Shown here: piece after piece, positions 9,825 to 51,354 of the stretch
Layout of the letters: each line of letters starts with the position of its first letter
Numbering within the stretch: position 1 is the first letter of the stretch
DNA from: Candidatus Omnitrophota bacterium
GTDB lineage: Bacteria; Omnitrophota; Gorgyraeia; Gygaellales; Profunditerraquicolaceae
Length of the DNA stretch: 64,000 bases
Reading direction: 5' to 3'
Assembly (NCBI GenBank): GCA_026387335.1
Contig: JAPLLX010000001.1
Coordinates: 106,620 to 170,619, forward strand
Notes under the pieces: generated by a model
Told to the model about the DNA's origin: nothing
The model's database searches: none
What the model saw: only the letters and a program-made list of their open reading frames with translations
Program-made: the position numbers and the translations under genes

Positions 9825-11000
9825 ATGACTAAATCAATGAAAAATAAGGTTATTGCCATAATTCCTGCCCGTGGAGGGTCAAAAGGCATACCTAGAAAGA
9901 ATATTGTTAATTTCGCAGGAAAACCTCTATTAGCTTGGTCTATTTTGCAGGCAAAATTATCAAAAATGATATCTGCGGTATACGTTACTTCTGATAGCCT
10001 GCAGATTTTAGAAATTGCAACAAAATACGGAGCCCTGCCAATTCTCAGGCCAAAAAAAATTTCTGGTGATTCAGACTCATCAGAATCCGCTTTGTTACAC
10101 GCTTTGAGTCATATTAAAGAGAAGCCCGATTATATTGTTTTTTTACAGGCAACCTCCCCGCTTAGGAAGCCCGGTGATATTGATAATGCGATAAAGAAGA
10201 TTATTAAACAGAAAGCGGATTCTTTAGTATCATTTATCGAATTACGGGAATTTATATGGAGTAAATCAAAAGATAAATTTTTTTCCTTAACTTTTGACTG
10301 TAAAAATAGAAAGCGAAGGCAGGAGCTAGAGCCGTTATTTCGTGAAAATGGATCCATATTTATATTTAAGCCAGAAATATTAAAACGATTAAAAAATCGT
10401 ATTGGCGCTAAGATGTCTGCCTATATTATGGAGCCATGGCAAAAAGCCGATATTGACGATAAAGTGGATTTGCAATATTGTGAGTGGCTCTTCTGGAAAT
10501 ACCTGGCAAAGGTCTATGGAAAATATATTTTTGAAAATATTCAGTTGATTGTTTATGATTTTGATGGAGTGATGACAGATAACAGAGTTTTTATTGATAA
10601 ACGGGGTAGTGAATGGGTTAAGGTTAACCGGGCTGACGGATTAGCTGTTTCGAGAATAAAAGAAGCGGGAATTAAGCAAGTAATACTTTCTTCAGAGGAA
10701 AATCAGGTTATTAAGAAACGAGCAGATAAATTAGGCTTGCCTTGTCTATATGGAATAGCCAACAAAAAAAAGGCGCTGGAAAGATATTTAGAAGCTAATC
10801 GCATCAGTAAAGATAAAGTAATTTTTGTAGGAAATGATATTAATGATATGGAAGCCATGCGATATGTTGGTTATCCTGTAGCTACTAATGATGCAAATGC
10901 AGAAGTAAAAAGAATTGCTAAAATTGTTACCGAGGCAAAAGGCGGGGATGGCGTTATAAGGGAACTGTTGGATATGTTTAAGGCAGTAAGTAGACAGTAA
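9825..11000 (+). CDS. Bifunctional acylneuraminate (nonulosonate) cytidylyltransferase / HAD-family sugar-phosphate phosphatase (NeuA-like N-terminus + KdsC-like C-terminus)
   Basis: N-terminus 'VIAIIPARGGSKGIPRKN' (CMP-NeuAc synthetase family). C-terminus HAD motifs 'VYDFDGVMTDNRV' (DxD) and 'GNDINDME' (KdsC/Kdn-9-P phosphatase-like). Confidence 0.8.
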   Translation: MTKSMKNKVIAIIPARGGSKGIPRKNIVNFAGKPLLAWSILQAKLSKMISAVYVTSDSLQILEIATKYGALPILRPKKISGDSDSSESALLHALSHIKEKPDYIVFLQATSPLRKPGDIDNAIKKIIKQKADSLVSFIELREFIWSKSKDKFFSLTFDCKNRKRRQELEPLFRENGSIFIFKPEILKRLKNRIGAKMSAYIMEPWQKADIDDKVDLQYCEWLFWKYLAKVYGKYIFENIQLIVYDFDGVMTDNRVFIDKRGSEWVKVNRADGLAVSRIKEAGIKQVILSSEENQVIKKRADKLGLPCLYGIANKKKALERYLEANRISKDKVIFVGNDINDMEAMRYVGYPVATNDANAEVKRIAKIVTEAKGGDGVIRELLDMFKAVSRQ

Positions 11001-18855: not shown

Positions 18856-20067
18856 ATGAACGATTCCTTAGTTATAAAACCGGTAAGGATTTTTATTATC
18901 CAGACTTTAACTTCGGCTTTATTTATGGCCGCCTATTATAAGCAAGAAAAAATGCGCGACGAAAAGTATCGTGATATCTGTGTTATTCCTTATTCAAAAA
19001 TATGTAATACTGATAATCAAGAATTTATTGTGGCTTGCAAAAATATTACCAGATTTATTTCTGAAGAAATAATTACCTTCGCGGAACAGGATATTTATTA
19101 TGTTCCAATGAGCTTTAAGAATCTAGGTCAGTATAGGCAAAAAAAGAAAAAATATTTAACTGTCATAAAAGAAATGTGTGAAAAGAACAATATAAGAATA
19201 GGTTTGATAAAGGAAATATATCACAGTAATCGAGCTTTCCATCAATATTTTAAATACTTAAATCCTAAAAGTAAATTAATCGGTTTTGAGCACGGGCTTA
19301 GCGATACCAGATGCTTCTTATTGCAAGATAACGCTATCAATATAATAAAGAATATCGTTAAATGCGTAATGGGGGGGATTTTTTTCATTTTTTATTCCTA
19401 TTTAGAAAATGATGATTTAAATGTTTCGTTATTGGCCCCCGAAATTAGAAAAATTAATAAAAAGATAAATATAAAGTATTTATACCCCAAACAAATTATT
19501 GAGATAGCAAACAAAATTGTCTATGATGATCTTAATGATACAGGTTTTTTTAACGAACATAAATCGATAGGAATAATAATAAACAGCGATGGTTTTAGCT
19601 TAGCTCAAAAAAGAGAGGATCGTTTAAAATTTCATAGGGATTTCGCTGTGTATATTTTAGAAAAAATAAAAGGATTATACCCTGAAGTTAAAACCATTAT
19701 TTTTAAAACCAGGTCTTTCGATCATATATTAGACAAGGATTTCTCTGATGTTAAAGAAGATTTGGTTAAGCTTTTCAATGGCTATAAAGTGTTCTTTTTT
19801 GACGAGATAACCAAAACAAATTATCCCCCTGAGTTTTATATAAATATTATACGTCCTAAATTTATTTTTGGTGATGTTTCTAGCGGACTTTTTTATTCTA
19901 AGGCCCTAATGCCAGAAATTGCAACTTATGATTATAATGAATACGTATCTAATTATGAATTTAAGCATTTTGGAGCTACTCTGCCAGATTATAAGTGGTT
20001 AAATGATATTTTCTTTAAGAGGTTCCGGGTTATCTTTAAAGATATTTTGCCAAAAAGGACCTTTTAG
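18856..20067 (+). CDS. Hypothetical protein (403 aa, N-terminal hydrophobic segment); candidate glycosyl/nonulosonate transferase
   Basis: Long ORF with coherent codon usage and no motif I recognise. Contains a G7+T7 homopolymer pair at 19371-19385. Confidence 0.3.
   Translation: MNDSLVIKPVRIFIIQTLTSALFMAAYYKQEKMRDEKYRDICVIPYSKICNTDNQEFIVACKNITRFISEEIITFAEQDIYYVPMSFKNLGQYRQKKKKYLTVIKEMCEKNNIRIGLIKEIYHSNRAFHQYFKYLNPKSKLIGFEHGLSDTRCFLLQDNAINIIKNIVKCVMGGIFFIFYSYLENDDLNVSLLAPEIRKINKKINIKYLYPKQIIEIANKIVYDDLNDTGFFNEHKSIGIIINSDGFSLAQKREDRLKFHRDFAVYILEKIKGLYPEVKTIIFKTRSFDHILDKDFSDVKEDLVKLFNGYKVFFFDEITKTNYPPEFYINIIRPKFIFGDVSSGLFYSKALMPEIATYDYNEYVSNYEFKHFGATLPDYKWLNDIFFKRFRVIFKDILPKRTF
19371..19385 (+). 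repeat. Homopolymeric G7-A-T7 tract inside the CDS 18856..20067
   Basis: 'gggggggatttttttc' read directly. A G7 run is unusual in this AT-rich sequence. Confidence 0.8.
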
Positions 20068-20135
20068 AAAATTAATTTTGAATGGGCGGAATTTTTAGCA
20101 GAATGATGAGCGCTACGATAAATAGAGATTGAATA

Positions 20136-21737
20136 ATGGCTAGTATGTTATTGGTACATTGCAATAGACTTGTTTCCGGTGTTCAATACCCCGGTATCTC
20201 AAGTATAGCTGCTTTTGTGAAGCGCGCTGGTCATAGAGTAATTTTTTTTGATACAGCTCATTACACAGACAGTAGAAGTATGGAATCATACAGTGCGTAC
20301 AGAGATATAAAGACTCGTATTGATTTGGAGTTTAAGGGTATAAAGAATAAACAGCTGATGCCATCAAAAAAACCAATAGATATATTACTCTGGGATCTTG
20401 AAAACGAATTTGCTAAAAATAGAATAGATATTATAGGGTTTTCTTCTTTTTCTGACGATTGGCCTTTCGCGCTTTTCCTAATAAAAAAGGTTCATGCTAT
20501 TGAACCAAATCTTCCGATTATTGTAGGAGGAATTCATGCTATTGTTAGTCCAGAGCAAGTGATTAAACATGATGAAGTTTCCATGGTTTGCGTAGGAGAA
20601 GGCGAGATGCCGATAGTTGAGTTATTAAACTCCATTGATGCCGGTAGAATTGATCTTAATATTAGAAATCTATGGATAAGGCACGAAGGGAAAATCATCC
20701 AAAACCCTAGGAGACCTTTATTGGCTTTCAGTGAAAATTTGCCGATGCTTGACTGGAGTTTATATAGCGGTATTCACTTTTATTTTCCTTTTGATGGTAA
20801 ATTATATCGGAGAGGAAGCGTTTTTATGGGCCGGGGTTGTCCATATTCATGTAGCTTTTGTATAAATAATTTCATTAAGAAAATCTATCCCAAAGAACAG
20901 GGTAGAACTTACCTTAAGAGCGTGGAATACCTGATAAAGGAGATTGTTTTTCTAAAAAATAATTACAATTTAGAGTTCCTGCGATTTTGGGATCAAACTT
21001 TTCTCGCCATGCCGAAGGGGTATTTATCGGAATTCGCAAAAGCTTATAATAAAGAAGTAAGGTTACCCTTTACGATAGAAACTATGGCTCAGACTGTTAC
21101 TCATGAGAATGCTAAGATGCTTGTTACTATGGGGTGTCAGTCCGTAAGTGTAGGAGTAGAGACTTCAAATGAGAATTTGAGAAAAAATATTCTAAACAAA
21201 CCGATAAAGAATGAGGTATATGATAGATGTTTTAAGATACTTTCAGAATACGGATTACGTAAAGTTGCTAATTTTATGTTTTTTCTTCCGCATCAAACAC
21301 TTGATGATATGTGGGAGGATGTTTCTATGTGTAAGAGATGGGGCATAGATCATCCCTCCGCCAGGATTTTCTATCCGTATCGGGGGACGCAATTACGCGA
21401 GTATTGTCTTAATAACGATTTACTTGATCTTGATCTTCTTGAGAGGATCGAGAATGAAAATGCGATCGGAGAGATAGGGAATTTAAATGAGAACCATGTT
21501 ACTTTTCAAGATACTGTTTTAAAATTTGATAACAAGCTAAAAGAAGAGGGAAGGCGGCTGCTGGATAATTTTATTTTATTTCAGGAGACTGAAGAATCAG
21601 CTTATGTCGATGTAAGAAAGTTACTTATAAAGAACGATATGGATTCGAATGACGCCTTGAGAAGAATGGAGCGCCAGATATATATAAAACGTTTTAAGGA
21701 AGAACCATTAACGGCAAATTACGGGATGAACTGTTGA
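20136..21737 (+). CDS. B12-binding-domain radical SAM enzyme (class B rSAM, copy 1)
   Basis: N-terminal B12-binding-like Rossmann region, then 'GRGCPYSCSFC' (CX3CX2C) and 'SVSVGVETSNE'. Confidence 0.8.
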   Translation: MASMLLVHCNRLVSGVQYPGISSIAAFVKRAGHRVIFFDTAHYTDSRSMESYSAYRDIKTRIDLEFKGIKNKQLMPSKKPIDILLWDLENEFAKNRIDIIGFSSFSDDWPFALFLIKKVHAIEPNLPIIVGGIHAIVSPEQVIKHDEVSMVCVGEGEMPIVELLNSIDAGRIDLNIRNLWIRHEGKIIQNPRRPLLAFSENLPMLDWSLYSGIHFYFPFDGKLYRRGSVFMGRGCPYSCSFCINNFIKKIYPKEQGRTYLKSVEYLIKEIVFLKNNYNLEFLRFWDQTFLAMPKGYLSEFAKAYNKEVRLPFTIETMAQTVTHENAKMLVTMGCQSVSVGVETSNENLRKNILNKPIKNEVYDRCFKILSEYGLRKVANFMFFLPHQTLDDMWEDVSMCKRWGIDHPSARIFYPYRGTQLREYCLNNDLLDLDLLERIENENAIGEIGNLNENHVTFQDTVLKFDNKLKEEGRRLLDNFILFQETEESAYVDVRKLLIKNDMDSNDALRRMERQIYIKRFKEEPLTANYGMNC

Positions 21738-22004
21738 ATCGGGAGAGCTTTTACAACATTGTTTGAAGCAAAAGTGCTTGTAGGACGCCGGAAGACAGAA
21801 TATAATACGGGTCAGGCCGCACAGTTCATTGAATTACAGTCTCCTGCTCCAGGGGCTATTAAGCCGGAATGGCTAGAAAATGCGGTTACTCTCTCTTAAG
21901 AACTGGTACAATTTATAGGAGCAGGTCACTTAATCAACAGTCTGTTTTTAATTATTTAAGAGAAGAAATAACTTGATGGCAAGCACTAATTTTACTATAA
22001 GTAT

Positions 22005-22970
22005 ATGAAAAAAAACCGGTTATTTAATAGGAGGATTTTAAAACTAAAATCATTAACCCAAAGGGAGCATGGGTTAAAGATTTCGATAATTGCGCCGTTA
22101 GAATTAAAGCATAATCTTGATCTAAATGGAGACCTAAAAAAGGTTGCTCAGCGAATAGCAAAGGCTAAGAAGAAGGGCGCATCTATTATATGGATGATAG
22201 GGGGGCATGTTATTAGATCCGGGGTTCAGCGATATATCATAGATTTGATGGAGAGAGGATATATTTCATGCCTGGCTATGAACGGAGCCGGGATTATCCA
22301 TGATTATGAACTTGCTCTTATCGGAGCAACTACCGAGAGCGTGGCTAAATATATCAAAGAAGGGCAATTCGGTTTATGGAAGGAAACAGGAGAAATCAAT
22401 AATATAATCAATAGAAGCTATAAACAGGGTCTTGGCCTGGGTGAGGGAGTCGGTAAGGCTATTTATGAAGGGAATTTTCCTTATAAAGAGTTTAGCCTGC
22501 TGGCGGCTGGTTATCGTTTGAAGGTTTTAGTAACGGTGCATGTCGGCATAGGTTACGATATTATCCATGAGCATCCTAATTGCGACGGCGCGGCAATGGG
22601 CGCAACTTCTTACCGCGATTTCCTAATGTTTGCTAAAGTCATTAGTAACTTGGAAAAAGGAATTATAATGAATTTCGGTAGCGCGGTAATGGCCCCGGAG
22701 GTATTTTTGAAGGCTTTGAGTATGGCCAGGAACGTTGCTCATCAGAGGAGGAAACAAATAAAGCATTTTACTTCTGTTGTTTGCGATCTTTATAATTTAC
22801 CACCTAAATTTAGCAAAGAGCCGGGGAAACACAATCCGGGTTATTATTTTAGGCCGTGGAAGACAATGCTTGTTAGGACAGTAGCTGACGGAGGAAGCGC
22901 TTTTTACATAAAAGGCTGCCATGCGGATGTAATCCCTGCACTATGGAAGGAAATTAATGAAAGTTCTTGA
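22005..22970 (+). CDS. Hypothetical protein with deoxyhypusine-synthase-like sequence pattern
   Basis: 'IIWMIGGHVIRSGVQRYIIDLMERGYISCLAMNGAGIIHDYELAL' parallels the DHS core '[43 protein letters not shown]'. By-eye similarity only. Confidence 0.3.
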   Translation: MKKNRLFNRRILKLKSLTQREHGLKISIIAPLELKHNLDLNGDLKKVAQRIAKAKKKGASIIWMIGGHVIRSGVQRYIIDLMERGYISCLAMNGAGIIHDYELALIGATTESVAKYIKEGQFGLWKETGEINNIINRSYKQGLGLGEGVGKAIYEGNFPYKEFSLLAAGYRLKVLVTVHVGIGYDIIHEHPNCDGAAMGATSYRDFLMFAKVISNLEKGIIMNFGSAVMAPEVFLKALSMARNVAHQRRKQIKHFTSVVCDLYNLPPKFSKEPGKHNPGYYFRPWKTMLVRTVADGGSAFYIKGCHADVIPALWKEINESS

Positions 22971-23433
22971 GTTCGATGCCTTAGCCGAAAAAATCAAGTG
23001 CTTAAAAGGCCCTGGAAAGAAAATTATCCTTTGTCACGGATGTTTTGATCTAATGCATCCCGGGCATATAAAATATTTTCAGGCAGCCAAGAAAATGGGA
23101 GATATCCTTGTGGTAACGGTTACCCCTGATATTTATGTTGATAAAGGGCCGGGTAGGCCGGTATTTAACCAGCAATTGCGCTCTGAATCAATCGCGGCTC
23201 TTGAGTGTGTTGATTATGTAGCAATTAATAAATGGCCTACGGCGGAAGAAACCATTAGATTATTAAAGCCTGATATATATGTAAAAGGGCAGGAGTTTGA
23301 AGGGCTTAAAGATAAAACCGGAAAGCTTCAGAAAGAATTAAAAGTTATTCAAGAGGTCGGAGCCGAAATCAGGTTTACGCATGAAATAGTATTTTCCTCA
23401 ACGGATTTAATTAATAACAACCTTAAGAGATAA
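22957..23433 (+). CDS. Cytidylyltransferase-like nucleotidyltransferase (RfaE/HldE domain II-like, stand-alone)
   Basis: 'ILCHGCFDLMHPGHIKYF' (HxGH) and 'DILVVTV'. 158 aa. Confidence 0.7.
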   Translation: MKVLEFDALAEKIKCLKGPGKKIILCHGCFDLMHPGHIKYFQAAKKMGDILVVTVTPDIYVDKGPGRPVFNQQLRSESIAALECVDYVAINKWPTAEETIRLLKPDIYVKGQEFEGLKDKTGKLQKELKVIQEVGAEIRFTHEIVFSSTDLINNNLKR

Positions 23434-23435
23434 AA

Positions 23436-24968
23436 ATGAAAAACTCACCTAAAAGCAAAATATTGTTACTCGACGATTTAATTAAAAAAGTAAGTAGCCT
23501 GCGGGCTTCCGGGAAAGTTGTAGTTCAGAGCCACGGGATTTTCGACTTGATCCATCCGGGAGTAATCGAGCATCTTAAATCAGCCAAGGAGCGAGGGGAT
23601 ATATTAATAGCTACTGTTATAGCGGATAAAGATGTACGTAAGGGTCCGGGAAGGCCGATCTTTCCTGGAAACTTGAGGGCAGATAATGTGGCGAGCCTCT
23701 CAATGATTGATTATGTTTGCGTGGTCAGCGATGAAAAGCCTTTTGAATGCGTAAAAAGGATAAAACCTGATATTTTTGCCAGGGGTAAATCCATAAAAGA
23801 CCAAGCCAATGAAATCAGCAATAAGATATTTGAAGAGGAAAAGGAGCTTTATTTTGGTAAGGTGAGGATCCATGAGACCGGCGGATTCTCTTTAAGCTCA
23901 TCGGAAATAATCAATAATTTTCTCGATATCTATCCGGAAGAGGTAAAAAGCTTCCTGAAGCGTTTCTCTAAGAAGTATAACTTTAAGGAAATCAGCGAAA
24001 AGATCAATAGCCTAAAGAAGCTAAAGATCCTGCTTATCGGCGATGGGATAATCGATGAGTATCATTATTGCGAGGCAATGGGCAGGTCAGCCAAAGCCCC
24101 ATTAGTGGTGAACAAATACATAACCCATGAAGTATTTGCCGGGGGCGCTTTTGCTATTGCGAACCACTTGGCGGGATTATCAAGCGATATCCACTTAGTT
24201 TCTTTGCTGGGGAATGATCTCGCGAAGGAAGATTTCATCCGCTCCAGCTTAAAGCCGAACGTAACTCCGAAGTTTTTTTACCGCAAAGACGGCTCAACTG
24301 TGGTTAAAAAGAGGTACATTAATCAGTATCAGAACCAGAAGCTTTTTGAAGTCAATTACCTGAGTGATGCCTATATTAACGGAGGGCTTGAATCGGAAAT
24401 AATCAAGTATCTAAAAGGCACGGTAAAGTCTTATGATTTAATTTTGATCTCTGACTTTGGACATGGGTTCATTACGAACAGGATAATCGAAACGATCCAA
24501 AATTCCGGAGTAAAATTCGCGGTGAATACCCAGACAAATGCCGCTAATGCCGGTTACAACATGATTACTAAATATCGTAAGCCGCTTTATGTTTGCCTGG
24601 ATGAACCGGAGTTAAGATGGGCAGCGCAGGAGAGATTCGCCGATATTGAATCTGTGGCTAAGAAAATTCTGGAAAGCATACATGCTTCTAACCTTATTGT
24701 GACCTTGGGTAAAAGAGGTTCATTCGGGATAAATAATAAGGACCAGGTAAATCATACGCCGATTTTTTCTTCAAAAGTTATAGATACTGTTGGCGCAGGA
24801 GACGCCTTTTTTGCTTTTACTGCGCCCTGTATCGCTCAGAAGATGCCTCTGGATTTAGTTTCTTTTATCGGAAACGCCGTGGGCGCCTTAGCCGTCCAGA
24901 TCGTTTGTAATAAGAGACCGGTTGAGAAGTACGAGTTATTTGAGTTTATTCACGCGCTTTTAGAATAA
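23436..24968 (+). CDS. Bifunctional sugar-phosphate nucleotidyltransferase (N-terminus) / pfkB-family sugar kinase (C-terminus); HldE-like with reversed domain order
   Basis: N-terminus 'VVVQSHGIFDLIHPGVIEHL' (HxGH). C-terminus ribokinase-family 'DTVGAGDAFFA' and 'KILLIGDGIIDEYHYCEAMGRSAKAPL' like HldE domain I. Confidence 0.75.
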   Translation: MKNSPKSKILLLDDLIKKVSSLRASGKVVVQSHGIFDLIHPGVIEHLKSAKERGDILIATVIADKDVRKGPGRPIFPGNLRADNVASLSMIDYVCVVSDEKPFECVKRIKPDIFARGKSIKDQANEISNKIFEEEKELYFGKVRIHETGGFSLSSSEIINNFLDIYPEEVKSFLKRFSKKYNFKEISEKINSLKKLKILLIGDGIIDEYHYCEAMGRSAKAPLVVNKYITHEVFAGGAFAIANHLAGLSSDIHLVSLLGNDLAKEDFIRSSLKPNVTPKFFYRKDGSTVVKKRYINQYQNQKLFEVNYLSDAYINGGLESEIIKYLKGTVKSYDLILISDFGHGFITNRIIETIQNSGVKFAVNTQTNAANAGYNMITKYRKPLYVCLDEPELRWAAQERFADIESVAKKILESIHASNLIVTLGKRGSFGINNKDQVNHTPIFSSKVIDTVGAGDAFFAFTAPCIAQKMPLDLVSFIGNAVGALAVQIVCNKRPVEKYELFEFIHALLE

Positions 24969-24973
24969 GAGGG

Positions 24974-25549
24974 TTGACGATGAAGAATAAAATAAAAAAT
25001 TATCATAAAAAATTTATTAACTTAATCAACTCGATTGAGGTTACGGATAGATCTGGGAAAGCCTTGGATTTTTATCAAGGGATTGAATTAGCTTGTTCAG
25101 TCATTAGAAAGCAATCTCGGCTAGGAGGAAAGGTTTTCTTTATCGGAAACGGAGGGAGTGCGGCTATCGCCAGCCACATGGCTATTGATTTCTGGAAAAA
25201 CTTAAAGATAGAGGCACTCTCTTTTAGCGATAGCTCTCTTTTGACCTGCATCAGCAATGATTTTGGCTATGACTATGTCTTTGCCAAGCCAATTGAATTC
25301 TTTGCCGGTAAAAAGGATATCTTGCTTAGTATCAGCAGTTCTGGAAAATCCCAAAATATACTTAAGGCAGTAGCTGCGGCTAAAGCCAAAGGAGCCAGCG
25401 TCATAACCTTATCCGGTTTTAGCAAAAATAATCCCTTAAGGCTCAAGGGTATTTGTAATTTTTATGTTCCAGCAAGCGAATACGGGCTTGTGGAAGTAGG
25501 GCATCAATACGTTTGCCATTATATTGCCGATATCTTATTGCAGAAATAA
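24974..25549 (+). CDS. gmhA: Sedoheptulose-7-phosphate isomerase (SIS domain, GmhA)
   Basis: 'KVFFIGNGGSAAIASHMAIDF' and 'ISSSGKSQNIL' are GmhA SIS signatures. 191 aa. Confidence 0.8.
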   Translation: MTMKNKIKNYHKKFINLINSIEVTDRSGKALDFYQGIELACSVIRKQSRLGGKVFFIGNGGSAAIASHMAIDFWKNLKIEALSFSDSSLLTCISNDFGYDYVFAKPIEFFAGKKDILLSISSSGKSQNILKAVAAAKAKGASVITLSGFSKNNPLRLKGICNFYVPASEYGLVEVGHQYVCHYIADILLQK

Positions 25550-25550
25550 A

Positions 25551-26618
25551 ATGGATGAATTCAAAATAGACAGCCATAAATTAATCTATCATGTTTCAAG
25601 GGTGAATGACTGGATAGAGGGTAAAAATATCTTTCCGATTTACCTTGAAATATCGACTTCAGGTTCCTGTAATCACCGCTGCACTTATTGCGCCTTGGAT
25701 TTTATGGGGTATCAGCCGAGGTTTCTGAAAACGGATATTTTGAAGAAAAGGCTTTCTGAGATGGCGCGTCTGGGCGTGAAAAGTATCATGTACGCAGGAG
25801 AAGGCGAGCCACTTCTGCATAAAGATATAGCAGAAATAATTAATCACACCAAGAGTTCAGGTATTGATGTGGGACTGACCACCAACGGAGTCTTACTAGA
25901 CAAAGAGTTAATTGACCGGACTTTGGCTAATGTTTCTTGGGTTAAAGTAAGTATAAACGGCGCAACTAAAGAAACTTATAGAAAAATTCATCAAAGCAAA
26001 GCGGTTGATTTAGATAAAGTGATTAAGAATATGAGATACGCTGTTAAATCGCGCATTAAGAATGGACACAAATGCGTTCTTGGGATGCAGCTTTTGCTTT
26101 TACCGGAAAACAGCAAGGAGGTTAAAGCATTAGCTGTGTTGGCAAGCGGAATAGGTCTGGATTATTTAGTGGTAAAGCCTTATTCGCAGCATCCATTTAG
26201 CAAAACTACTAGGTATAAGAATATTAAATATGATAAATATCTTAAGCTTGCTGATGAACTAAAAGCTTTTAAGACAGATAAATTTAATGTGATCTTTCGC
26301 GCAAATACTATGAAGAAGTGGGATCATGAGACACGTAACTATAAACATTGTTATGCTTTACCTTTCTGGTCTTATATTGATGCGGGTGGAAATGTATGGG
26401 GATGTAGCGTTTACCTGGGGAAGAACGAATTCCTGTACGGAAATATTTATAAGCAAGATTTTAAGGATATTTTGAACAGTCCTAAGAGATCGAGAATAAT
26501 TAAAATGGCTGCCCGGAAGCTTTGTGTTAAGGATTGCAGGGTAAATTGCAGGATGGATGAAATCAACAGGTATCTTTGGGAACTCAAACATCCATCAGAA
26601 CACGTTAATTTTATTTAA
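25551..26618 (+). CDS. Radical SAM enzyme (unknown subfamily) with Cys-rich C-terminus
   Basis: 'GSCNHRCTYC' (CX3CX2C), 'YAGEGEPLL', and C-terminal Cys cluster 'CSVYLG...CVKDCRVNC'. Confidence 0.7.
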   Translation: MDEFKIDSHKLIYHVSRVNDWIEGKNIFPIYLEISTSGSCNHRCTYCALDFMGYQPRFLKTDILKKRLSEMARLGVKSIMYAGEGEPLLHKDIAEIINHTKSSGIDVGLTTNGVLLDKELIDRTLANVSWVKVSINGATKETYRKIHQSKAVDLDKVIKNMRYAVKSRIKNGHKCVLGMQLLLLPENSKEVKALAVLASGIGLDYLVVKPYSQHPFSKTTRYKNIKYDKYLKLADELKAFKTDKFNVIFRANTMKKWDHETRNYKHCYALPFWSYIDAGGNVWGCSVYLGKNEFLYGNIYKQDFKDILNSPKRSRIIKMAARKLCVKDCRVNCRMDEINRYLWELKHPSEHVNFI

Positions 26619-26655
26619 GGTTTTGAATAAAAACATGGAAGGAAAAAAGCTGAGT

Positions 26656-27522
26656 ATGGCGCGCAGTGGTAATAATAAAGATTCAAAACGAATTCTAATT
26701 ACTGGCGCAGGTGGTTTTGTGGGAGGTGCGCTTTTTTCCAAGTTAAAATATGCTAAACCCATTGGCGTAGATTTTGGAATAACAGAGGGTTGTCAAGAAA
26801 ATAAATTATTCAATGTTGACCTTAGAGATGAAGAGGCAGTTAAAACCTTGTTTAATGAGTATTCGCCGGATATAGTATTTCATTTTGCTGCGTTGACTTC
26901 TCCGCAACGAAACGAAAAGAATATCGAGCTTGCTACTGAAGGTCACATTAAAATAACTAACAATATTTTAAATAATTTAAATAAGGATACTCACCTAATA
27001 TTTTTGTCAACTGATAAAGTCTTCGATGGAGTAGATCCTTGTCCGGATGAAAAGGCAAAAGTAAATCCTTTATGGATATACGGAAAACTTAAATGGGAAT
27101 GCGAGAATATCGTTCAAGAACGCTTAAAGAAATCCCATATATTCAGGCTGGGTATTGTGCATTCGTTGGGAGATTGTTTTGCTTCGTCCAAAGAGTCGGG
27201 CCCAAGTTCTTTTGTAGATAAGGCCATTATTGATATAAAAGCCGGCAGAGAAGTAGTGGTATTTGATAATGTCGAGCGTTGTTTTGTAAGATTACGGTTA
27301 CTGGTAAAATTATTAGAAATGGCAATGGATGATTGTCATTATGGAATCTATCATGTTGGTTCAGCGATGATGAATTATTATGATAGGATCCGAATCCTAT
27401 GCGAAGAAGAACGGATAAAATGGGAAGGTAAGCTTATCCCAAGATCCGGTAAGGTATTACCAATAGCGCAGAATTTGAATACAGGTAAGCTTAAGAGGGT
27501 TTTTGGTCTAACCTTCAATTAA
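26656..27522 (+). CDS. NAD-dependent epimerase/dehydratase (extended SDR)
   Basis: 'ILITGAGGFVGGALF' and 'YGKLKWECE' (YxxxK). Start chosen at the ATG after SD-like 'GGAAGGA'. Confidence 0.6.
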   Translation: MARSGNNKDSKRILITGAGGFVGGALFSKLKYAKPIGVDFGITEGCQENKLFNVDLRDEEAVKTLFNEYSPDIVFHFAALTSPQRNEKNIELATEGHIKITNNILNNLNKDTHLIFLSTDKVFDGVDPCPDEKAKVNPLWIYGKLKWECENIVQERLKKSHIFRLGIVHSLGDCFASSKESGPSSFVDKAIIDIKAGREVVVFDNVERCFVRLRLLVKLLEMAMDDCHYGIYHVGSAMMNYYDRIRILCEEERIKWEGKLIPRSGKVLPIAQNLNTGKLKRVFGLTFN

Positions 27523-27564
27523 ACGGGAACGAATAATAATGATGAGCAGAAAAGGAATTAAATA

Positions 27565-28614
27565 ATGAGTGTTTATCCTTTTGTTTTTAAGGCAGCCATA
27601 CTCGAAAAAAATAATAAACCCCTGGTTATTGATAGCATTGAATTTCCCGGACCATTATTAGCGGGACAGGTTTTGGTTAAACTGAGCTATAGCGGAATCT
27701 GTGGAAAGCAGATTGAGGAAATCGATGGAACAGATGGTTCTGACCCGTGGCTACCGCATCTTCTTGGCCATGAAGGTAGCGGCGAAGTCATTGATGTAGG
27801 GCCGGCAGTTATAAAAGTTAAGAAAACTGATACGGTAGTTTTACACTGGATGAAGGGAAGCGGTATCCATTCATCTACCCCACTTTATTTCCGTAAAGGT
27901 TCCCGAATTAACGCGGGATGGGTTACTACCTTTAATGAATTCGCGGTTGTTTCGGAGAATCGGGTTACCCCTATTCCTAAAGGCAGTGATTTGTTAGTTA
28001 GCGCTTTGTTAGGTTGCGCTGCTACTACTGGGGTGGGCGTGGTGATTAATGAAGCGCAAGTTCAGCCTTATGATACGGTGGTTGTTTATGGTTGCGGCGG
28101 TATTGGATTATGTGCAGTGCAAGCTGCGCGGCTAAGATATCCCCGCAAAATTATTGCCGTAGATATTAATAAAGATTCTCTTGTTTTAGCGCGTCAATTT
28201 GGAGCAACGGATTTGATAAATGCGTCAGAAGAAAACGTACTTGAGTATGTGCGTAAGCTTACATCAGGATGCGGCGCAACAAAAGTGATTATTGCTACAG
28301 GTAATCCAGAGGCTATTGAGTTAGCTGTGGAAACAGCAGGGATTCCAGCTCAGGTCTTTTTTGTAGGGGTTCCACCCAAAGGGAGTAAGGTAAAATTGGA
28401 TGCGCATGCAATTATGCATAAAAGATGTATTAATGGTACTCTCGGAGGCGGTATTTGGCCAGATAGAGATATCCCAACTTATTTATCTATGCATAAAGAA
28501 GGCCAGTTGCATTTAGATAAAGTTGTTTCGCGTATCGTACCGTTCGCTGAGATTAACGAGGTAATAAAACAGAAACGCGCAGCGATTGCCGGACGCTGCG
28601 TAATAAAATTTTGA
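27565..28614 (+). CDS. Zinc-dependent medium-chain dehydrogenase/reductase (ADH family)
   Basis: 'GICGKQIEEIDG' and 'GHEGSGEVIDVG' (Zn-ADH signature), plus 'VYGCGGIGL' NAD-binding. Confidence 0.8.
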   Translation: MSVYPFVFKAAILEKNNKPLVIDSIEFPGPLLAGQVLVKLSYSGICGKQIEEIDGTDGSDPWLPHLLGHEGSGEVIDVGPAVIKVKKTDTVVLHWMKGSGIHSSTPLYFRKGSRINAGWVTTFNEFAVVSENRVTPIPKGSDLLVSALLGCAATTGVGVVINEAQVQPYDTVVVYGCGGIGLCAVQAARLRYPRKIIAVDINKDSLVLARQFGATDLINASEENVLEYVRKLTSGCGATKVIIATGNPEAIELAVETAGIPAQVFFVGVPPKGSKVKLDAHAIMHKRCINGTLGGGIWPDRDIPTYLSMHKEGQLHLDKVVSRIVPFAEINEVIKQKRAAIAGRCVIKF

Positions 28615-28638
28615 AATACAAATTTTAAAGAGGTGGGT

Positions 28639-29415
28639 ATGAATTTTGGAATAAAAGATAAAAAAGTTTTAGTTACTGGAGCCAGTAAAGGCATTGGAGC
28701 GGCTATAGCAAGGGCTTTTGCAGCTGAAGGATGCAGATTGTCGTTAATAGCGCGCAATAAAGATAAGCTAAAACAATTATTTGAAGAGATTGGCGGCACT
28801 GTGAAGGGGCATGAATTTCTCTCTATAGATTTGATGGAGCCGGGTGCGCCAACAAAAGCAGTAAAGTCGCTTTTAAAAGATAGCGATCCTTTTGATATAG
28901 TGGTTCATAATGTTGGCGGCGCATTAGGCCTTAAGGATATTTTTGCTCCACTTGGTGATTGGGCTGATGTCTGGCGGTTCAATGTGGGTATTGCTATTGA
29001 GATGAACCGTATTTTGATTCCTCCTATGCGTCAAAGAAAATGGGGTAGAGTGGTTCATCTTTCGTCGATATCCGGAGATCTTGGGGAACCGTTAGAGCCT
29101 TTTGGCGGAGCAATACCTTACGCAGCTGCCAAGGCATATTTAAATGCTTATGTGAAAGGGCTTGGTAGGGAATTAGCCAGGGATAATGTAATTATTTCTG
29201 GCGTGATGCCGGGAGCAGCGCTTTCTGAAGGAAAATATTGGGATAAGACAGTAAAGAATGATCCTGTGCTTGCCAAGAAATTTCTTGATCATTATTATCC
29301 TATTGGACGCTTTGGAAAGCCAGAAGAAATTGCGCCGTTTGTTGTTTTATTAGCATCCGAGCGTGCGACTTTTGCGGCTGGTACATTGATTCCTGTGAGC
29401 GGTGGACGAGTATAA
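28639..29415 (+). CDS. Short-chain dehydrogenase/reductase (classical SDR)
   Basis: 'VLVTGASKGIGAAIA' and 'YAAAKAYLNAYVK' (YxxxK). SD 'AAAGAGGTGGG'. Confidence 0.8.
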   Translation: MNFGIKDKKVLVTGASKGIGAAIARAFAAEGCRLSLIARNKDKLKQLFEEIGGTVKGHEFLSIDLMEPGAPTKAVKSLLKDSDPFDIVVHNVGGALGLKDIFAPLGDWADVWRFNVGIAIEMNRILIPPMRQRKWGRVVHLSSISGDLGEPLEPFGGAIPYAAAKAYLNAYVKGLGRELARDNVIISGVMPGAALSEGKYWDKTVKNDPVLAKKFLDHYYPIGRFGKPEEIAPFVVLLASERATFAAGTLIPVSGGRV

Positions 29416-29435
29416 AAATTATAAAGGATTAAAAA

Positions 29436-30236
29436 ATGGACGAGAGGTCTCGTTATCTTCGTAGACTTATTTTATCTGGTATAGAAGGGACAAGAAAAGG
29501 GCATATAGGATCTGCCTTGTCGGTAGTTGAGATTATCAGGGTTCTTTATGATGATATTATGAAGTATCGTCCGCAGGAACCTTTATGGCCGGAAAGGGAT
29601 AGATTTATTCTTAGTAAGGGGCATGGTTGTTTGGCGTTGTATGCAGTATTGGCAGATAAAGGTTTTTTGGATGTAGAAGAATTGAAAACTTATGCTTTAG
29701 AAAATTCGAGATTGGGTGGGTGTCCTGAAAGTTTAGTGCCTGGTATAGAAGCGACGACAGGCGCCTTGGGGCATGGTTTGTCTATAGGGGTCGGAATGGC
29801 CCTTGCTAGCCGCATACAAAATAGGAGAAGCCGCGTATATGTTGTTCTTGGAGATGGTGAACTCGACGAGGGTTCTATATGGGAAGCGGCTTTGTGTGCC
29901 GCCAAACATAAATTATCGCATTTGACGGCTATTATTGATTGTAATAAGTTACAGCTTGGGGGATCGACAAAAGAAATATTAAACCTTGAGCCATTAAGAG
30001 AAAAGTGGATTAGTTTTGGCTTTACAGTAGAAGAAGTTGATGGGCATAATGTTGATACTCTTAAGGCAACCTTTAAAAGGCTTCCTTTCTCAAGCGATAA
30101 GCCATCAATGGTGATTTGTCATACGATTAAAGGTAAGGGGTTTTCTTTTGCGGAGAACGATTATAAATGGCATTGGAAAAGCGGAATTGATGATGCGACT
30201 ATCTTAAAAATGAAATCTTCATTGGAGAAAGAATAA
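29436..30236 (+). CDS. Transketolase, N-terminal subunit (split transketolase, copy 2)
   Basis: 'RFILSKGHGCLALYAVL', 'GALGHGLSIGVGMALA' and 'GDGELDEGSIWEAA'. About 45% identical to copy 1 at protein level. Confidence 0.85.
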   Translation: MDERSRYLRRLILSGIEGTRKGHIGSALSVVEIIRVLYDDIMKYRPQEPLWPERDRFILSKGHGCLALYAVLADKGFLDVEELKTYALENSRLGGCPESLVPGIEATTGALGHGLSIGVGMALASRIQNRRSRVYVVLGDGELDEGSIWEAALCAAKHKLSHLTAIIDCNKLQLGGSTKEILNLEPLREKWISFGFTVEEVDGHNVDTLKATFKRLPFSSDKPSMVICHTIKGKGFSFAENDYKWHWKSGIDDATILKMKSSLEKE

Positions 30237-31174
30237 TGTTTTACGCTTTTAGGGATACAATCTATGAATTAGCAAAGATGGATAAAAGGATAATTCTTAT
30301 TAGTGCTGATCAAGATGTGGGGTTAAGCCATATGCAATCCGAAATGCCTAACCAGTTTTTTATGGAAGGAATATCAGAAGCTAATGCGATAGGTATGGCT
30401 TCGGGCCTTGCTGCCGATGGTTTTAGGCCTTTTATATTGAACCATGCAAGTTTTTTGACCAGAAGGTGCTATGAACAGATTGTTTTGGATGCCTGTTTGC
30501 AGGAGCGTCCTATACGGCTGGTTGGTATGGGTTCTGGGTTAGCAACCGCTCACCTAGGGCCTACACATACGATTATTGAAGATATAGCAATAACGCGGGC
30601 TATCCCAGGAATGACTGTTATTGCTCCCTGCGATGCTGTTGAGATGAAGAAACTGATGCCGCACATATTAAAATGGCCGAAACCTGTTTATCTAAGGCTT
30701 GCAAGGTATGGAAAACCGATAGTTACTAGGGATGAAGGCGAGGTTGAAATTGGAAAGGCTGTGGTGCTTTACAAAGGTGAGTCATCCAAAAAAAACGTGT
30801 TGTTGATTTCTACAGGCGCTATGACATTAAGCGCAATAAAAGCAGTTGAAGAGCTTAAAGAGGCTGGTATTGAATGTACGGTATTGCATTTCCATACCAT
30901 AAAACCTCTGGATAAGAATGCGATTATTGAACTGGCACAAAAAGCCAAGTTGATAGTTACTTTGGAAGATCATACTATTATAGGAGGATTAGGCAGTGCT
31001 TGCTTAGAGGTTCTTATGGATAATATACATTCTAAAAATCTGCCGCAGGTTTATCGTATGGGCCTTCCTGATAAATTTATACATCAGTATGGAACACAAG
31101 AGTCATTAATGGAAGAATTTGGATTACAGCCTTTGCAGATTGCCAACAGAATAATGAAGCTTATGAAAAAATAA
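30236..31174 (+). CDS. Transketolase, C-terminal subunit (copy 2)
   Basis: Overlaps the upstream stop. Pyrimidine-binding domain 'EGISEANAIGMASGLA' plus C-terminal domain. Confidence 0.85.
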   Translation: MFYAFRDTIYELAKMDKRIILISADQDVGLSHMQSEMPNQFFMEGISEANAIGMASGLAADGFRPFILNHASFLTRRCYEQIVLDACLQERPIRLVGMGSGLATAHLGPTHTIIEDIAITRAIPGMTVIAPCDAVEMKKLMPHILKWPKPVYLRLARYGKPIVTRDEGEVEIGKAVVLYKGESSKKNVLLISTGAMTLSAIKAVEELKEAGIECTVLHFHTIKPLDKNAIIELAQKAKLIVTLEDHTIIGGLGSACLEVLMDNIHSKNLPQVYRMGLPDKFIHQYGTQESLMEEFGLQPLQIANRIMKLMKK

Positions 31175-34273: not shown

Positions 34274-34343
34274 GATGTGCCGCCTTAATCTTAACCCGTT
34301 TAGTTCATGGCCTATTGATTCAGATATAGCTGTGGTAAGAACT

Positions 34344-45173: not shown

Positions 45174-45196
45174 TTTCATGAGGTTTGGAGAAACAG

Positions 45197-45505
45197 ATGA
45201 CAGATAAAGCAAGAGTGGTTCAAGCAATATTCAGGGCAGTTGATGAGGTTAACGAGCTATTACCAGAAGAGCAGCAATCCGAAAAGTCCCTGGATACAGT
45301 TTTGTTTGGTAAAAATGGAAGATTAGATTCTTTAGGAATTGTAATTTTTTTCGTAGCAGTAGAGAAAAAAATTGAAAAAGAATTCGGAGTAGTAATTATG
45401 TTGACGGATGAGAAGATAATGTCTCAGAAGAATAATCCCCTACAGACTATTGAGACCCTTGTTGATTATGTTTCTATGCATTTAGAGGAGAAATTAAATG
45501 GATAG
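45197..45505 (+). CDS. Acyl carrier protein
   Basis: About 102 aa with 'GRLDSLGIV' (phosphopantetheine attachment Ser in a DSLG-type motif). SD 'GGAG' 6 nt upstream. Confidence 0.65.
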   Translation: MTDKARVVQAIFRAVDEVNELLPEEQQSEKSLDTVLFGKNGRLDSLGIVIFFVAVEKKIEKEFGVVIMLTDEKIMSQKNNPLQTIETLVDYVSMHLEEKLNG

Positions 45506-47186
45506 ACGGAAACTTAGGGCGTTACTTATTTCGGACTTCAATATAGATATTCTTAAGGGATATTTAAATAATGATGAAGAATTACCGTTACTTAATATAA
45601 CAGTTGCGCCTTTCGGGCAGGTTATGCCAATTTTGCTTGAGGAAAAATCCGAATACTGGAAGAGTAAATATAATTCCGTGATAGTATGGACTCAGCCCGA
45701 AAATGTTATCGGGTCTTTCAAGTGCATTCTTAATTATCAACATGTACCTCTTGACAAAGTGCTTGCGGAAGTAGATGAGTTTTCTCGAGCATTAATGAAT
45801 TTACAAGAGAGAGTTAGTCTTGTATTCGTTCCTATATGGGTCCTGCCGACGTATCATAAAGGTTATGGAATGCTTGAGATGAAAGATGGAATCGGTATTG
45901 AGAATATATTAAAGCAAATGAATTTAAGGCTTTCAAAAAATTTAGACTCCGCAACAAATATATATTTATTAAACACTCAGAAGTGGATCGAGGTTGTCGG
46001 TAAGTATGCATTTGATCATAAATTATGGTATATGGCTAAGATCCCTTTTGGAAACGAAGTCTTCAAAGAGGCAACCCAGGATATTAAATCTGCCTTAAGA
46101 GGAATTAATGGTGCTTCAAGAAAGATAATCATTCTTGACTTAGATAATACATTATGGGGAGCAATAGTAGGAGAAGTTGGTTGGGAAAATATTCAACTGG
46201 GAGGGCACGACTATATCGGTGAAGCGTATCTTGATTTTCAAAGAGCGTTAAAATCTTTAACTAATCGCGGTATTTTATTAAGTATAGTCAGTAAAAACGA
46301 AGAGTCATTAGCTTTAGAAGCAATAAACAAGCATCCAGAAATGGCGCTTAGGTTAGAGGATTTTGCTGCCTGGAAAATTAATTGGAAAGACAAAGCTCAG
46401 AATATTATCGATTTAGTTTCTGATTTGAATTTGGGCTTGCAATCCGCAGTTTTTATAGATGATGACCCTGTGGAGCGGGCAAGAGTTAGGGAGGCTTTAC
46501 CTGAGGTTTTTGTTCCTGAATGGCCAGAAGACAAATTGTTATATAAGAAGACGCTACTTAGCCTGCGTTGTTTTGATGCTCCTTCAGTTAGCAAAGAAGA
46601 CTTAGAAAGAACTAAGATGTATGTGACTGAGCGTGAGCGGCAGGATTTAAAAAGTAATGTTGGTTCTTTAGAAGATTGGCTAAAGGTATTAGGGATAAAA
46701 GTAAAAGTGGAGAAGCTTAATGATGCCAATCTTCAAAGAACGGTTCAATTGTTAAATAAAACTAATCAAATGAATCTTAGTACAAGAAGAATGACGGAAT
46801 CTGAGCTGGTAAATTGGACTAAGCAGGATAATCATAAATTTTGGATTTTTCGTGTTATTGATAAGTTTGGCGATGCAGGCTTAACAGGTATAATAAGCCT
46901 CCAGGTAGATAATAAGATAGGTAGGGTCGTTGATTTCGTATTAAGTTGTAGGGTGATTGGACGAAAAATAGAAGAAACTATGCTATATAAAGTTGTTAAT
47001 TATGCACAATCTATAGGATTAGATAAGGTCTACGCAAAATATATTCCGACACCAAAGAATAAACCATGTTTAGAATTATGGAATCGTTCAGGATTTGTTT
47101 ATAATGAAGAAAATAATTGTTTTAGTTGGGAAGTCAAGAAAGATTACTCCTTGCCAGACTGTATACAAATCGAAAAGGAAGAATGA
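45498..47186 (+). CDS. FkbH-like protein (HAD subfamily IIIC phosphatase + C-terminal acyltransferase region); predicted glyceryl-ACP loader
   Basis: HAD motif 'IIILDLDNTLWG', 'LSIVSKNEE' and C-terminal 'SCRVIGRKIEE' (conserved Cys region of the FkbH family). Adjacent ACP. Confidence 0.7.
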   Translation: MDRRKLRALLISDFNIDILKGYLNNDEELPLLNITVAPFGQVMPILLEEKSEYWKSKYNSVIVWTQPENVIGSFKCILNYQHVPLDKVLAEVDEFSRALMNLQERVSLVFVPIWVLPTYHKGYGMLEMKDGIGIENILKQMNLRLSKNLDSATNIYLLNTQKWIEVVGKYAFDHKLWYMAKIPFGNEVFKEATQDIKSALRGINGASRKIIILDLDNTLWGAIVGEVGWENIQLGGHDYIGEAYLDFQRALKSLTNRGILLSIVSKNEESLALEAINKHPEMALRLEDFAAWKINWKDKAQNIIDLVSDLNLGLQSAVFIDDDPVERARVREALPEVFVPEWPEDKLLYKKTLLSLRCFDAPSVSKEDLERTKMYVTERERQDLKSNVGSLEDWLKVLGIKVKVEKLNDANLQRTVQLLNKTNQMNLSTRRMTESELVNWTKQDNHKFWIFRVIDKFGDAGLTGIISLQVDNKIGRVVDFVLSCRVIGRKIEETMLYKVVNYAQSIGLDKVYAKYIPTPKNKPCLELWNRSGFVYNEENNCFSWEVKKDYSLPDCIQIEKEE

Positions 47187-51253: not shown

Positions 51254-51354
51254 GATAAATATTTTTCGGGAAGTGAGATAATGGAACAAATGAGTTTTAT
51301 CCGTGAATGGTACGGGAAATTTGTTATTCCAATTTCAGAATTAAAGGAGGTTTA

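Follow-up and report, generated by a model that had tools for sequence, protein, structure and literature searches.

A GSU2086-family protein with a deoxyhypusine synthase-like fold is a constant part of a widespread nucleotide-heptose cassette

Why does a gene whose product resembles deoxyhypusine synthase (DHS) lie in a bacterial glycan locus, next to genes for heptose synthesis? The question is raised by a 64,000-nucleotide stretch of contig JAPLLX010000001.1 from a Candidatus Omnitrophota bacterium (hereafter the window), in which a first-pass annotation described an open reading frame (ORF) at 22005..22970 (+) as DHS-like, saw no obvious role for it between a B12-radical-SAM gene and a heptose module, and suggested that it might transfer an aminoalkyl group to an amino sugar or else be an unrelated Rossmann protein. 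Here, we find that the gene belongs to the catalogued GSU2086 family, that its product has the fold of DHS and ornithine cyclodeaminase (OCD), and that it is part of a nucleotide-heptose pathway; of these three statements taken together we are highly confident. On what the protein does we are more tentative. Our best overall explanation, which we favor while holding it a little less than probable, is that the protein carries out a redox-neutral hydride shuttle on the nucleotide-activated heptose, in the simplest case as a stand-in for the ADP-heptose 6-epimerase HldD.

The reading frame itself is secure: its coordinates, ATG start and 321-residue translation all match those of the first-pass annotation, and the start codon is backed by homologues whose alignments begin at residue 1-7. 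Near the N-terminus, F7, R20 and L24 do not vary in a set of 59 close sequences, and about 40 N-terminal residues of this single-domain protein are poorly modeled. The NCBIfam model NF052581, 'GSU2086 family protein', matches with 391.4 bits against a curated cut-off of 250, aligning residues 8-315 to positions 3-300 of its 301, and judged from this match the gene product is a typical full-length member of the catalogued family. The family is large: a word-indexed search with the GSU2086 protein gave at least 8000 matches, the best 120 of which are 66-100% identical and include archaeal (Methanoperedens) sequences at 68%, and among representatives clustered at 50% identity we find 2156 proteins at E<=1e-3 and 441 at E<=1e-30. 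Homologues carry public names such as 'hypothetical protein', 'deoxyhypusine synthase family protein', 'ornithine cyclodeaminase family domain' and 'Arginine dihydrolase ArgZ...', and a search of solved structures by sequence found none closer to the GSU2086 protein than an E-value of 0.005. What is known already is thus a catalogued family in its ordinary context, whose public annotation already points to a DHS or OCD resemblance.

By sequence alone, the DHS signal is marginal. The Pfam DS model (PF01916) aligns residues 43-105 to model positions 15-78 with an E-value of 3.3e-4, and its 20.5 bits fall under the gathering score of 27, so that the similarity is indeed modest, as had been claimed; the DHS model TIGR00321 gives 20.3 bits against a cut-off of 304. 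Alignment with hhalign, using a human DHS query identical to PDB 1rlz_A, places residues 61-100 on human DHS 99-138. The motif correspondence proposed in the first-pass annotation is therefore sound, in the same register, and the aligned motif spans the first NAD-binding beta-alpha-beta unit. The relationship to the DHS superfamily is real, since PF21570, the Rossmann domain found at the C-terminus of ArgZ-like arginine dihydrolase/OCD proteins, scores 33.4 bits, over its cut-off of 27 (for model positions 1-89 of 213 only), and since structure comparison leads to the same proteins. An AlphaFold2 model built on 59 homologues (mean pLDDT 79, pTM 0.82) was compared by Foldseek with the PDB and matched only 3c2q, an archaeal TIGR00300-type protein, ArgZ/AgrE and then DHS, with probability 1.0, E-values of 2e-8 to 5e-5, TM-scores of about 0.5 and 10-15% identity over some 300 aligned columns. 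For the DHS structures themselves (8put, 7cmc, 1dhs and others), E-values range from 5e-7 to 5e-5 and TM-scores from 0.46 to 0.59, again over about 300 columns. These matches, confined to OCD and DHS structures, together with PF21570, dispose of the fallback that the protein might be an unrelated Rossmann protein.

Within this superfamily, the nearest characterized relatives are the OCD domains of ArgZ, AgrE and TIGR00300 proteins, not DHS, even though the full models of these OCDs are far from matching (TIGR00300, 24.5 bits against a cut-off of 410.8; NF052231, 17.3 against 1025). An H-D-x-E...G motif is literally common to the GSU2086 protein, AgrE, ArgZ and 3c2q, and the shared N-terminal motifs G66-G-H, N93-G-x-G and H99-D-x-E align to DHS 104-138 and to AgrE 474-539. 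The GSU2086-family protein is a cytoplasmic protein of about 320 residues with a dinucleotide-binding Rossmann fold of the DHS/OCD type. It has a DHS-like fold and is not a deoxyhypusine synthase, because the DHS models score far below cut-off and no lysine is kept family-wide at the position of the DHS catalytic lysine. The DHS assignment thus holds for the superfamily fold and fails for the enzyme's identity, the nearest relatives being OCDs and the protein's own family being NF052581.

The conserved residues bear on both the cofactor and the chemistry. In a diverse family alignment of 78 sequences, reaching down to about 37% identity, H99, D100, E102, G107, T109, E111, V113, G120, F122, G123, H179, G183, D205, F206, G219, G225, K236, D261, R283 and R291 are invariant or nearly so. 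The NAD (nicotinamide adenine dinucleotide)-contacting residues of human DHS we take to be 105-109, 131-133, E137, D238, G283, 308-309 and D342. The first three DHS segments have conserved counterparts, namely G66-G-H-x-x-K/R71 for 104-109, N93-G-x-G for 131-134 and H99-D100 for E137-D138; the C-terminal segments are matched by strand order and non-significant alignment only, a profile comparison with human DHS giving nothing significant for them and aligning residues 61-100 alone with any confidence. Human K329, the lysine that forms the enzyme-imine, has no conserved counterpart. The only lysine kept in at least 95% of sequences is K236, on a different helix from the DHS catalytic lysine. 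A candidate for that lysine in the window's own subfamily was K286 of the YYFRPWKT motif, as W285-K286 lies in a C-terminal loop topologically comparable to DHS W327-G-K329; we reject it, since K286 is kept in 56% of the diverse alignment (and W285 in 33%), and since a greedy hhalign alignment, colinear over 274 columns and non-significant (probability 0.3%), sets R283-P284 on R320-P321 and R291/T292 on G328/K329.

The same residues weigh on the idea that this is a DHS-like, NAD-using transferase that moves the aminoalkyl (aminobutyl) part of a polyamine onto an amino sugar. The fold, the aligned NAD-loop motif and the W285-K286 loop would all suit such an enzyme, but the sub-threshold scores of both DHS models and the lack of a conserved DHS lysine do not, and neither does the genomic setting: sugar aminotransferases occur in only 13 of the 80 loci compared below, no polyamine or eIF5A-type gene is found among the annotated most-widespread families of those loci or among the scanned ORFs of the window, and the simple Geobacter operon holds ADP-heptose genes only. 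We consider this idea very improbable, and the mechanism that we propose would involve no aminobutyl transfer.

If not aminoalkyl transfer, then what? The strongest guide is the company that the gene keeps. A scan of one genome per species yielded more than 578 confirmed loci, and the 80 best, with proteins 57-70% identical to that of the window, were kept for comparison; they come from Omnitrophota, Nitrospirota, Planctomycetota (including Scalindua), Desulfobacterota, Nitrospinota, Acidobacteriota, Verrucomicrobiota, Parcubacteria, Methanoperedens and other archaea. Identity at this level between phyla, within the set examined, points to a catalytic role under strong constraint. Homologues of the window's HldC/HldE-like nucleotidyltransferase (NT) are present in 72 of these loci, of its NT-PfkB fusion in 70, of its GmhA-like isomerase in 55, of its radical-SAM/SPASM enzyme in 41, and of the N- and C-terminal transketolase subunits in 45 and 38; three of the loci that lack NT or kinase are contigs of less than 3 kb. 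One recurring arrangement is GSU2086 > NT > NT-PfkB > GmhA, and a second, mainly in Desulfobacterota and Phycisphaerae, is (GmhA) > NT-PfkB > GSU2086 > GmhA. In the second, the fusion NT-PfkB is the only form present, with an NT domain that shares 50-61% identity with the stand-alone NT. The slot after GmhA is held either by a 355-residue radical-SAM/SPASM protein or by a 332-residue RmlB-like NDP (nucleoside diphosphate)-sugar 4,6-dehydratase (TIGR01181, 209 bits), an alternation that suggests equivalent or alternative steps on the activated heptose.

The upstream neighbor, by comparison, is variable: in a relative with an 83% identical protein, a short-chain dehydrogenase/reductase (SDR) gene lies 38 bp upstream and there is no B12-radical-SAM gene. 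Since the B12-radical-SAM neighbor is not conserved while the heptose genes are, the gene heads the heptose module and is no oddity caught between two modules. The view that it has no obvious role at this position does not survive the comparison, as the gene adjoins HldE- and GmhA-like genes across the 80-locus set and is fused to such enzymes in some cases. The same cassette is found in cultured organisms, on plasmid pDCAR1 of Solidesulfovibrio carbinolicus, on the chromosome of Maridesulfovibrio hydrothermalis and in Pseudodesulfovibrio portus, where a gene of the GT9 heptosyltransferase family lies divergently upstream. No other part of this cassette, which is present in many anaerobic bacteria, in some archaea and on a few virus-like contigs, is as constant as GSU2086.

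Gene fusions tie the protein more closely to the heptose pathway. Among the representatives, GSU2086 is joined to NT in both orders (P0066, P0124, P0237, P0252, P0261, P0265), NT being its commonest partner, and also to SIS (P0123, P0154), to PfkB (P0143), to HAD phosphatases (P0125, P0198) and to a GmhB-like HAD-IIIA domain (P0127); two proteins are triple fusions of an ARMT1-type phosphatase, NT and GSU2086 (P0181, P0219), and one is a tandem duplicate of the GSU2086 domain (P0126). Because every canonical NDP-heptose activity (isomerase, kinase, phosphatase and NT) occurs as a partner, the fusions mark GSU2086 as an additional, fifth activity of the pathway, tied most tightly to NT. A widespread beta-type nucleotide-heptose cassette, comprising GmhA-like and HldE-like proteins, sometimes GmhB, and downstream tailoring enzymes, has GSU2086 as its constant fifth component.

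GmhB was found neither in the 64-kb window nor in 73 of the 80 loci, and the protein might therefore be thought to replace this phosphatase. That is ruled out by the true GmhB adjoining the GSU2086 gene in the other 7 loci and in Geobacter, and by the fusions to phosphatase domains; in four loci, including Methanoperedens, an authentic GmhB (NF006506, 202 bits, cut-off 178) lies directly upstream, and neither Pfam nor NCBIfam detects a HAD signal in the GSU2086 protein. In Geobacter sulfurreducens, the operon is gmhB (GSU2084)-hldE (GSU2085)-GSU2086-gmhA (GSU2087), and transposon insertions in GSU2085, GSU2086 and GSU2087 cause the same electrode-growth defect by transposon sequencing (PMC5585712). 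This defect is the family's only experimental datum. Apart from GSU2086, the operon holds exactly the four ADP-D,D-heptose genes.

In the textbook ADP-heptose pathway, which has five enzymes, the step after NT belongs to the SDR enzyme HldD (ADP-heptose 6-epimerase), which works by oxidizing its substrate and re-reducing it. A comparable logic operates on the fold discussed here: in DHS, in the OCD domain of ArgZ/AgrE and in TIGR00300 OCDs, a nicotinamide-type cofactor stays bound and serves as transient hydride acceptor and donor within one turnover. We propose that the GSU2086 protein would act directly after NT, on the nucleotide-activated heptose. This placement follows from the fusion order phosphatase-NT-GSU2086, from the mirror-image operon order GSU2086-NT-kinase-isomerase, from the overlap with the NT gene and from the Geobacter operon. 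By analogy with DHS and OCD, the protein may carry a tightly bound hydride-shuttling cofactor, either NAD(P) or, conceivably, a nickel-pincer nucleotide, and would use it in a redox-neutral cycle to oxidize, rearrange and re-reduce the sugar. The simplest such reaction is an epimerization, in which case the protein would stand in for the SDR-type epimerase HldD/GmhD. The proposal that it is an HldD analogue rests on this step being HldD's own and on the absence of any HldD-like gene from the window and the approximately 90 loci searched (loci, not whole genomes) with an E. coli HldD query verified against 1eq2. The consulted portion of the Geobacter transposon-sequencing gene table lists no hldD, rfaD or gmhD, but the table is cut short and carries no weight on this point. 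SDR families give no score against the GSU2086 protein, and its fold is also different from that of SDR HldD (TIGR02197). A redox-neutral step on the NDP-heptose seems to us evenly poised between true and false; the 6-epimerase role in particular is a good deal more doubtful.

With regard to the cofactor, NCBIfam names TIGR00300 as nickel-pincer-nucleotide dependent, and a 2025 report, as cited in PMC13524815, describes a nickel-pincer adenine dinucleotide in such OCDs. No Lar genes are seen among the window ORFs scanned (about 20 were left out) or the annotated widespread families of the 80 loci, though cofactor genes need not be linked.

Several observations weigh against this proposal. In many cassettes a 4,6-dehydratase follows straight after GmhA, and there a 6-epimerase would be pointless because the dehydratase would erase the stereochemistry at C6. 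The family also occurs in archaea, in candidate-phyla-radiation bacteria and on virus-like contigs, which have no lipopolysaccharide (LPS). The GmhA-, kinase- and NT-like proteins of the cassette all score under their equivalog cut-offs, so that the cassette's sugar may differ from glycero-manno-heptose. Significant alignment to NAD-binding relatives is confined to the first 65-90 residues, the invariant loop 181-198 is modeled at pLDDT below 50, and our literature search found no paper tying the GSU2086 family or any DHS-like protein to heptose.

Some of the same evidence would suit a protein that performs no redox chemistry at all, whose dinucleotide pocket binds ADP- or NDP-heptose or a nucleoside triphosphate, and which acts as a hydrolase (for instance removing the 7-phosphate or splitting pyrophosphate) or as a non-catalytic partner or regulator of the NT-kinase. 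ADP-heptose may resemble the ADP-ribose part of NAD closely enough for such a pocket, the closest genetic link is to NT, through the overlap and the fusions in both orders, GmhB is absent from most loci, and the invariant H99, D100, E102, E111, H179, D205, R283 and R291 are compatible with a metal or phosphate site. A phosphatase role, however, sits poorly with the true GmhB next to the gene in seven loci and in Geobacter, and with GmhB-like, other HAD and ARMT1 phosphatases fused to GSU2086; the identity of about 60-70% kept across phyla and archaea suggests a strongly constrained catalytic site. No hydrolase is known to us from the DS/OCD branch of the fold. On balance we regard a non-redox role as unlikely.

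Alternatively, the protein could act before activation, on a sugar phosphate, for instance as an NAD-dependent epimerase or oxidoreductase on the ketose or heptose phosphate that the transketolase and GmhA-like isomerase of the cassette produce; the end product would then differ from glycero-manno-heptose and be another heptose or a higher sugar. The fusions with SIS and PfkB domains, the sub-cut-off scores of the GmhA-, kinase- and NT-like proteins and the dedicated split transketolase of the cassette would agree with such a role. Fusions to NT are more frequent, however, both the phosphatase-NT-GSU2086 triple fusion and the reverse-pathway operon order put the protein after NT, and in appearance the Geobacter operon is an ordinary ADP-heptose operon for LPS; we find an early role quite unlikely. 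Returning to a hydride shuttle after NT, its most far-reaching form is that GSU2086 proteins are the first sugar-nucleotide enzymes on the DHS/OCD fold, hydride-shuttling NDP-heptose epimerases with NAD(P) or a nickel-pincer nucleotide that replace SDR HldD in many anaerobes, some archaea and a few large viruses. This version is speculative and we would not call it likely; if it is true, the 'ADP-heptose pathway' of those organisms has a so far unrecognized fifth enzyme.

How is the cassette built in the window itself? All its genes lie on the forward (+) strand. Behind the GSU2086-family gene (22005..22970, 321 residues), the first gene of the heptose cassette, with family membership set by NF052581 and fold by AlphaFold2/Foldseek, comes the HldC/HldE-domain-II-like NT (22957..23433, 158 residues; PF01467), which scores 105 bits against a cut-off of 181 with TIGR02199 and has kept its HxGH motif intact (HPGH). 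The GSU2086 gene and the start of this NT gene share 14 nt, and the same overlap is seen in two other loci (L081 and L082). Next is the NT-PfkB fusion (23436..24968, 510 residues), which joins an N-terminal NT-like domain (HPGV) to a PfkB heptose-7-phosphate-kinase-like domain, a domain order reversed relative to E. coli HldE; with its HPGV motif and about 40% identity to the stand-alone NT, the NT domain of this fusion is probably inactive or degenerate. The GmhA-like SIS-domain sugar-phosphate isomerase (24974..25549) scores 97.7 bits against a cut-off of 209 with TIGR00441, and the radical-SAM/SPASM enzyme (25524..26618) fills the slot held elsewhere by the RmlB-like 4,6-dehydratase. Between this enzyme and the transketolase lie three oxidoreductases (26557..29415), an RmlD-like SDR, a zinc-dependent alcohol dehydrogenase and a short-chain dehydrogenase, with homologues in 2, 6 and 10 of the 80 loci respectively; these look like a lineage-specific addition. 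The split transketolase (29436..31174, with an N-terminal subunit at 29436-30236 and a C-terminal subunit at 30236-31174) is a conserved cassette member.

The window as a whole is one large glycan locus, in which most of the ORFs scanned are glycan genes and which has a flippase, glycosyltransferases, NeuB, CMP-sugar synthetases, a UDP-GlcNAc 2-epimerase, RmlC, methyltransferases and two B12-radical-SAM genes, and all its ORFs of at least 120 residues are on the + strand except for a few short antisense ORFs nested in longer ones. Base composition steps up at the cassette: genes just upstream have a GC content of 0.29-0.36 and most cassette genes one of 0.39-0.43 (window 18856-31174), which fits either a strongly conserved cassette or a horizontally moving one. 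A nonulosonic-acid set is also present, with NeuB at 34275, CMP-synthetases at 9825 and 40721 and the UDP-GlcNAc 2-epimerase at 38400; in 11-14 of the 80 loci, and in Desulfovibrionaceae isolates, NeuB and CMP-synthetase genes flank the heptose cassette. RmlC lies at 51307, an ABC exporter at 32480, and the two B12-radical-SAM genes, at 20136 and 43572, are paralogues with 32% identity. Behind the second of these, a 562-residue protein with an FkbH-like HAD motif (LDLDNTLWG, 45498-47186) follows a 106-residue acyl carrier protein (ACP)-like ORF (45185-45505, motif ..GRLDSLG..), and the pair hints at a glycan modification that involves acyl- or glyceryl-ACP.

Upstream of the GSU2086 gene is a non-coding spacer of 267 bp (21738..22004, no strand), the presumed operon boundary or promoter region. 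It had been described as the only sizeable, GC-richer gap of the cluster, and it is indeed the largest non-coding gap in the window, the next being 151 bp; its GC content of 0.393 is only slightly higher than the window mean of 0.37. A seemingly larger gap of 324 bp at 45174-45497 is coding, as it holds the ACP-like ORF. Since genes for a small winged helix-turn-helix protein and a NusG-like protein precede the cassette in other genomes, the gap fits the start of an operon; no sigma-70 consensus promoter was found in 21738-22004. We also considered other contents for the gap. The B12-radical-SAM frame (20136-21737) runs on without a further stop for 53 codons after its TGA (21735-21896), but selenocysteine insertion or read-through is rejected, as orthologues of 46-73% identity are 517-548 residues long and cover 89-90% of the extended query, and no significant hairpin follows the TGA; most likely the open frame is a remnant or has arisen by chance. 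We likewise reject a riboswitch or other structured RNA, with no Rfam match at E<=1 and folding z-scores of -0.1 and -0.5.

The cassette has further variants, and the family also turns up outside it. In Desulfobacterota-type cassettes (L093 12650-14294, L094 12691-14341 and 10 more loci), the radical-SAM/SPASM gene is followed by genes for a HAD-like protein of about 210 residues and a protein of about 350 residues, the latter with aminoglycoside/choline-kinase-like motifs yet no Pfam or NCBIfam match; the two predicted proteins suggest a second phosphorylation/dephosphorylation step. Homologues also occur on IMG/VR contigs that this database classes as viral (L089 7482-8975, L090 7929-11369, L091 and L092). 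One contig so classed, of 269 kb, has a GmhB-GSU2086 fusion ORF adjoining ribonucleotide reductase and RecA-like genes, and another has a GSU2086 copy with two neighbors, an SDR gene and an HldE-like gene whose domains follow the canonical PfkB-NT order. More distant members (35-44% identity; P0130, P0141, P0200 and P0212, on L084-L088) lie among densely packed small ORFs on the same strand, which have no Pfam matches, a layout that looks phage-like and unlike the standard cassette; L085 has a GmhA-like fragment near its distant member. A search of viral contigs seeded with P0212 gave no match.

LPS cores, capsules and S-layer glycans are built in part from nucleotide-activated heptoses, one of which, ADP-heptose, acts as an agonist of innate immunity. 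Across a large and mostly anaerobic set of bacteria, as well as in some archaea and on some virus-like contigs, the heptose-pathway genes travel with GSU2086. Identifying the reaction would complete the pathway for these organisms and correct the public names under which the family now stands, 'deoxyhypusine synthase family', 'ornithine cyclodeaminase family domain' and 'hypothetical protein'; it might also bring sugar-nucleotide chemistry to a fold whose only use known to date is amine oxidation. Conservation across domains of life, constant partnership with a heptose NT-kinase and tractable cultured hosts make the protein a good experimental target, directly testable in Geobacter sulfurreducens, Maridesulfovibrio hydrothermalis and Solidesulfovibrio carbinolicus.

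Set against known systems, the window protein is closest to its own family. It shares with the NF052581 type member, Geobacter sulfurreducens GSU2086, both a full-length hidden Markov model match and a neighborhood of hldE-like and gmhA-like genes, and shows no feature that sets it apart from the family. The C-terminal OCD domain of ArgZ/AgrE and the TIGR00300 OCDs (6juy, 6lrg, 3c2q; PF21570) are the best structural matches (Foldseek E-values of 2e-8 to 1e-6) and share the first beta-alpha-beta unit, including the H-D-x-E...G motif, but identity is only 12-15%, the GSU2086 protein has no LOR/SDH or arginine-dihydrolase N-terminal domain, and its context is sugar rather than arginine/ornithine metabolism. 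DHS (PF01916, TIGR00321; 1dhs, 7cmc, 8put) has the same fold over about 300 columns (TM-scores of 0.5-0.6), and its NAD-loop segments align, residues 66-73 with DHS 104-111 and 93-100 with DHS 131-138; in contrast, identity is 10-13%, all DHS cut-offs are missed, the catalytic Lys329 has no conserved counterpart, and GSU2086 loci show no link to eIF5A, EF-P or polyamine genes. The proposed functional parallel is HldD/GmhD (SDR; 1eq2), with which the protein would share its pathway position after NT and a bound nicotinamide cofactor that cycles within one turnover, and in Geobacter GSU2086 lies at the point of the operon at which one would look for a fifth ADP-heptose gene. Since the two folds are unrelated, the GSU2086 protein would be an analogue of HldD and not its homologue.

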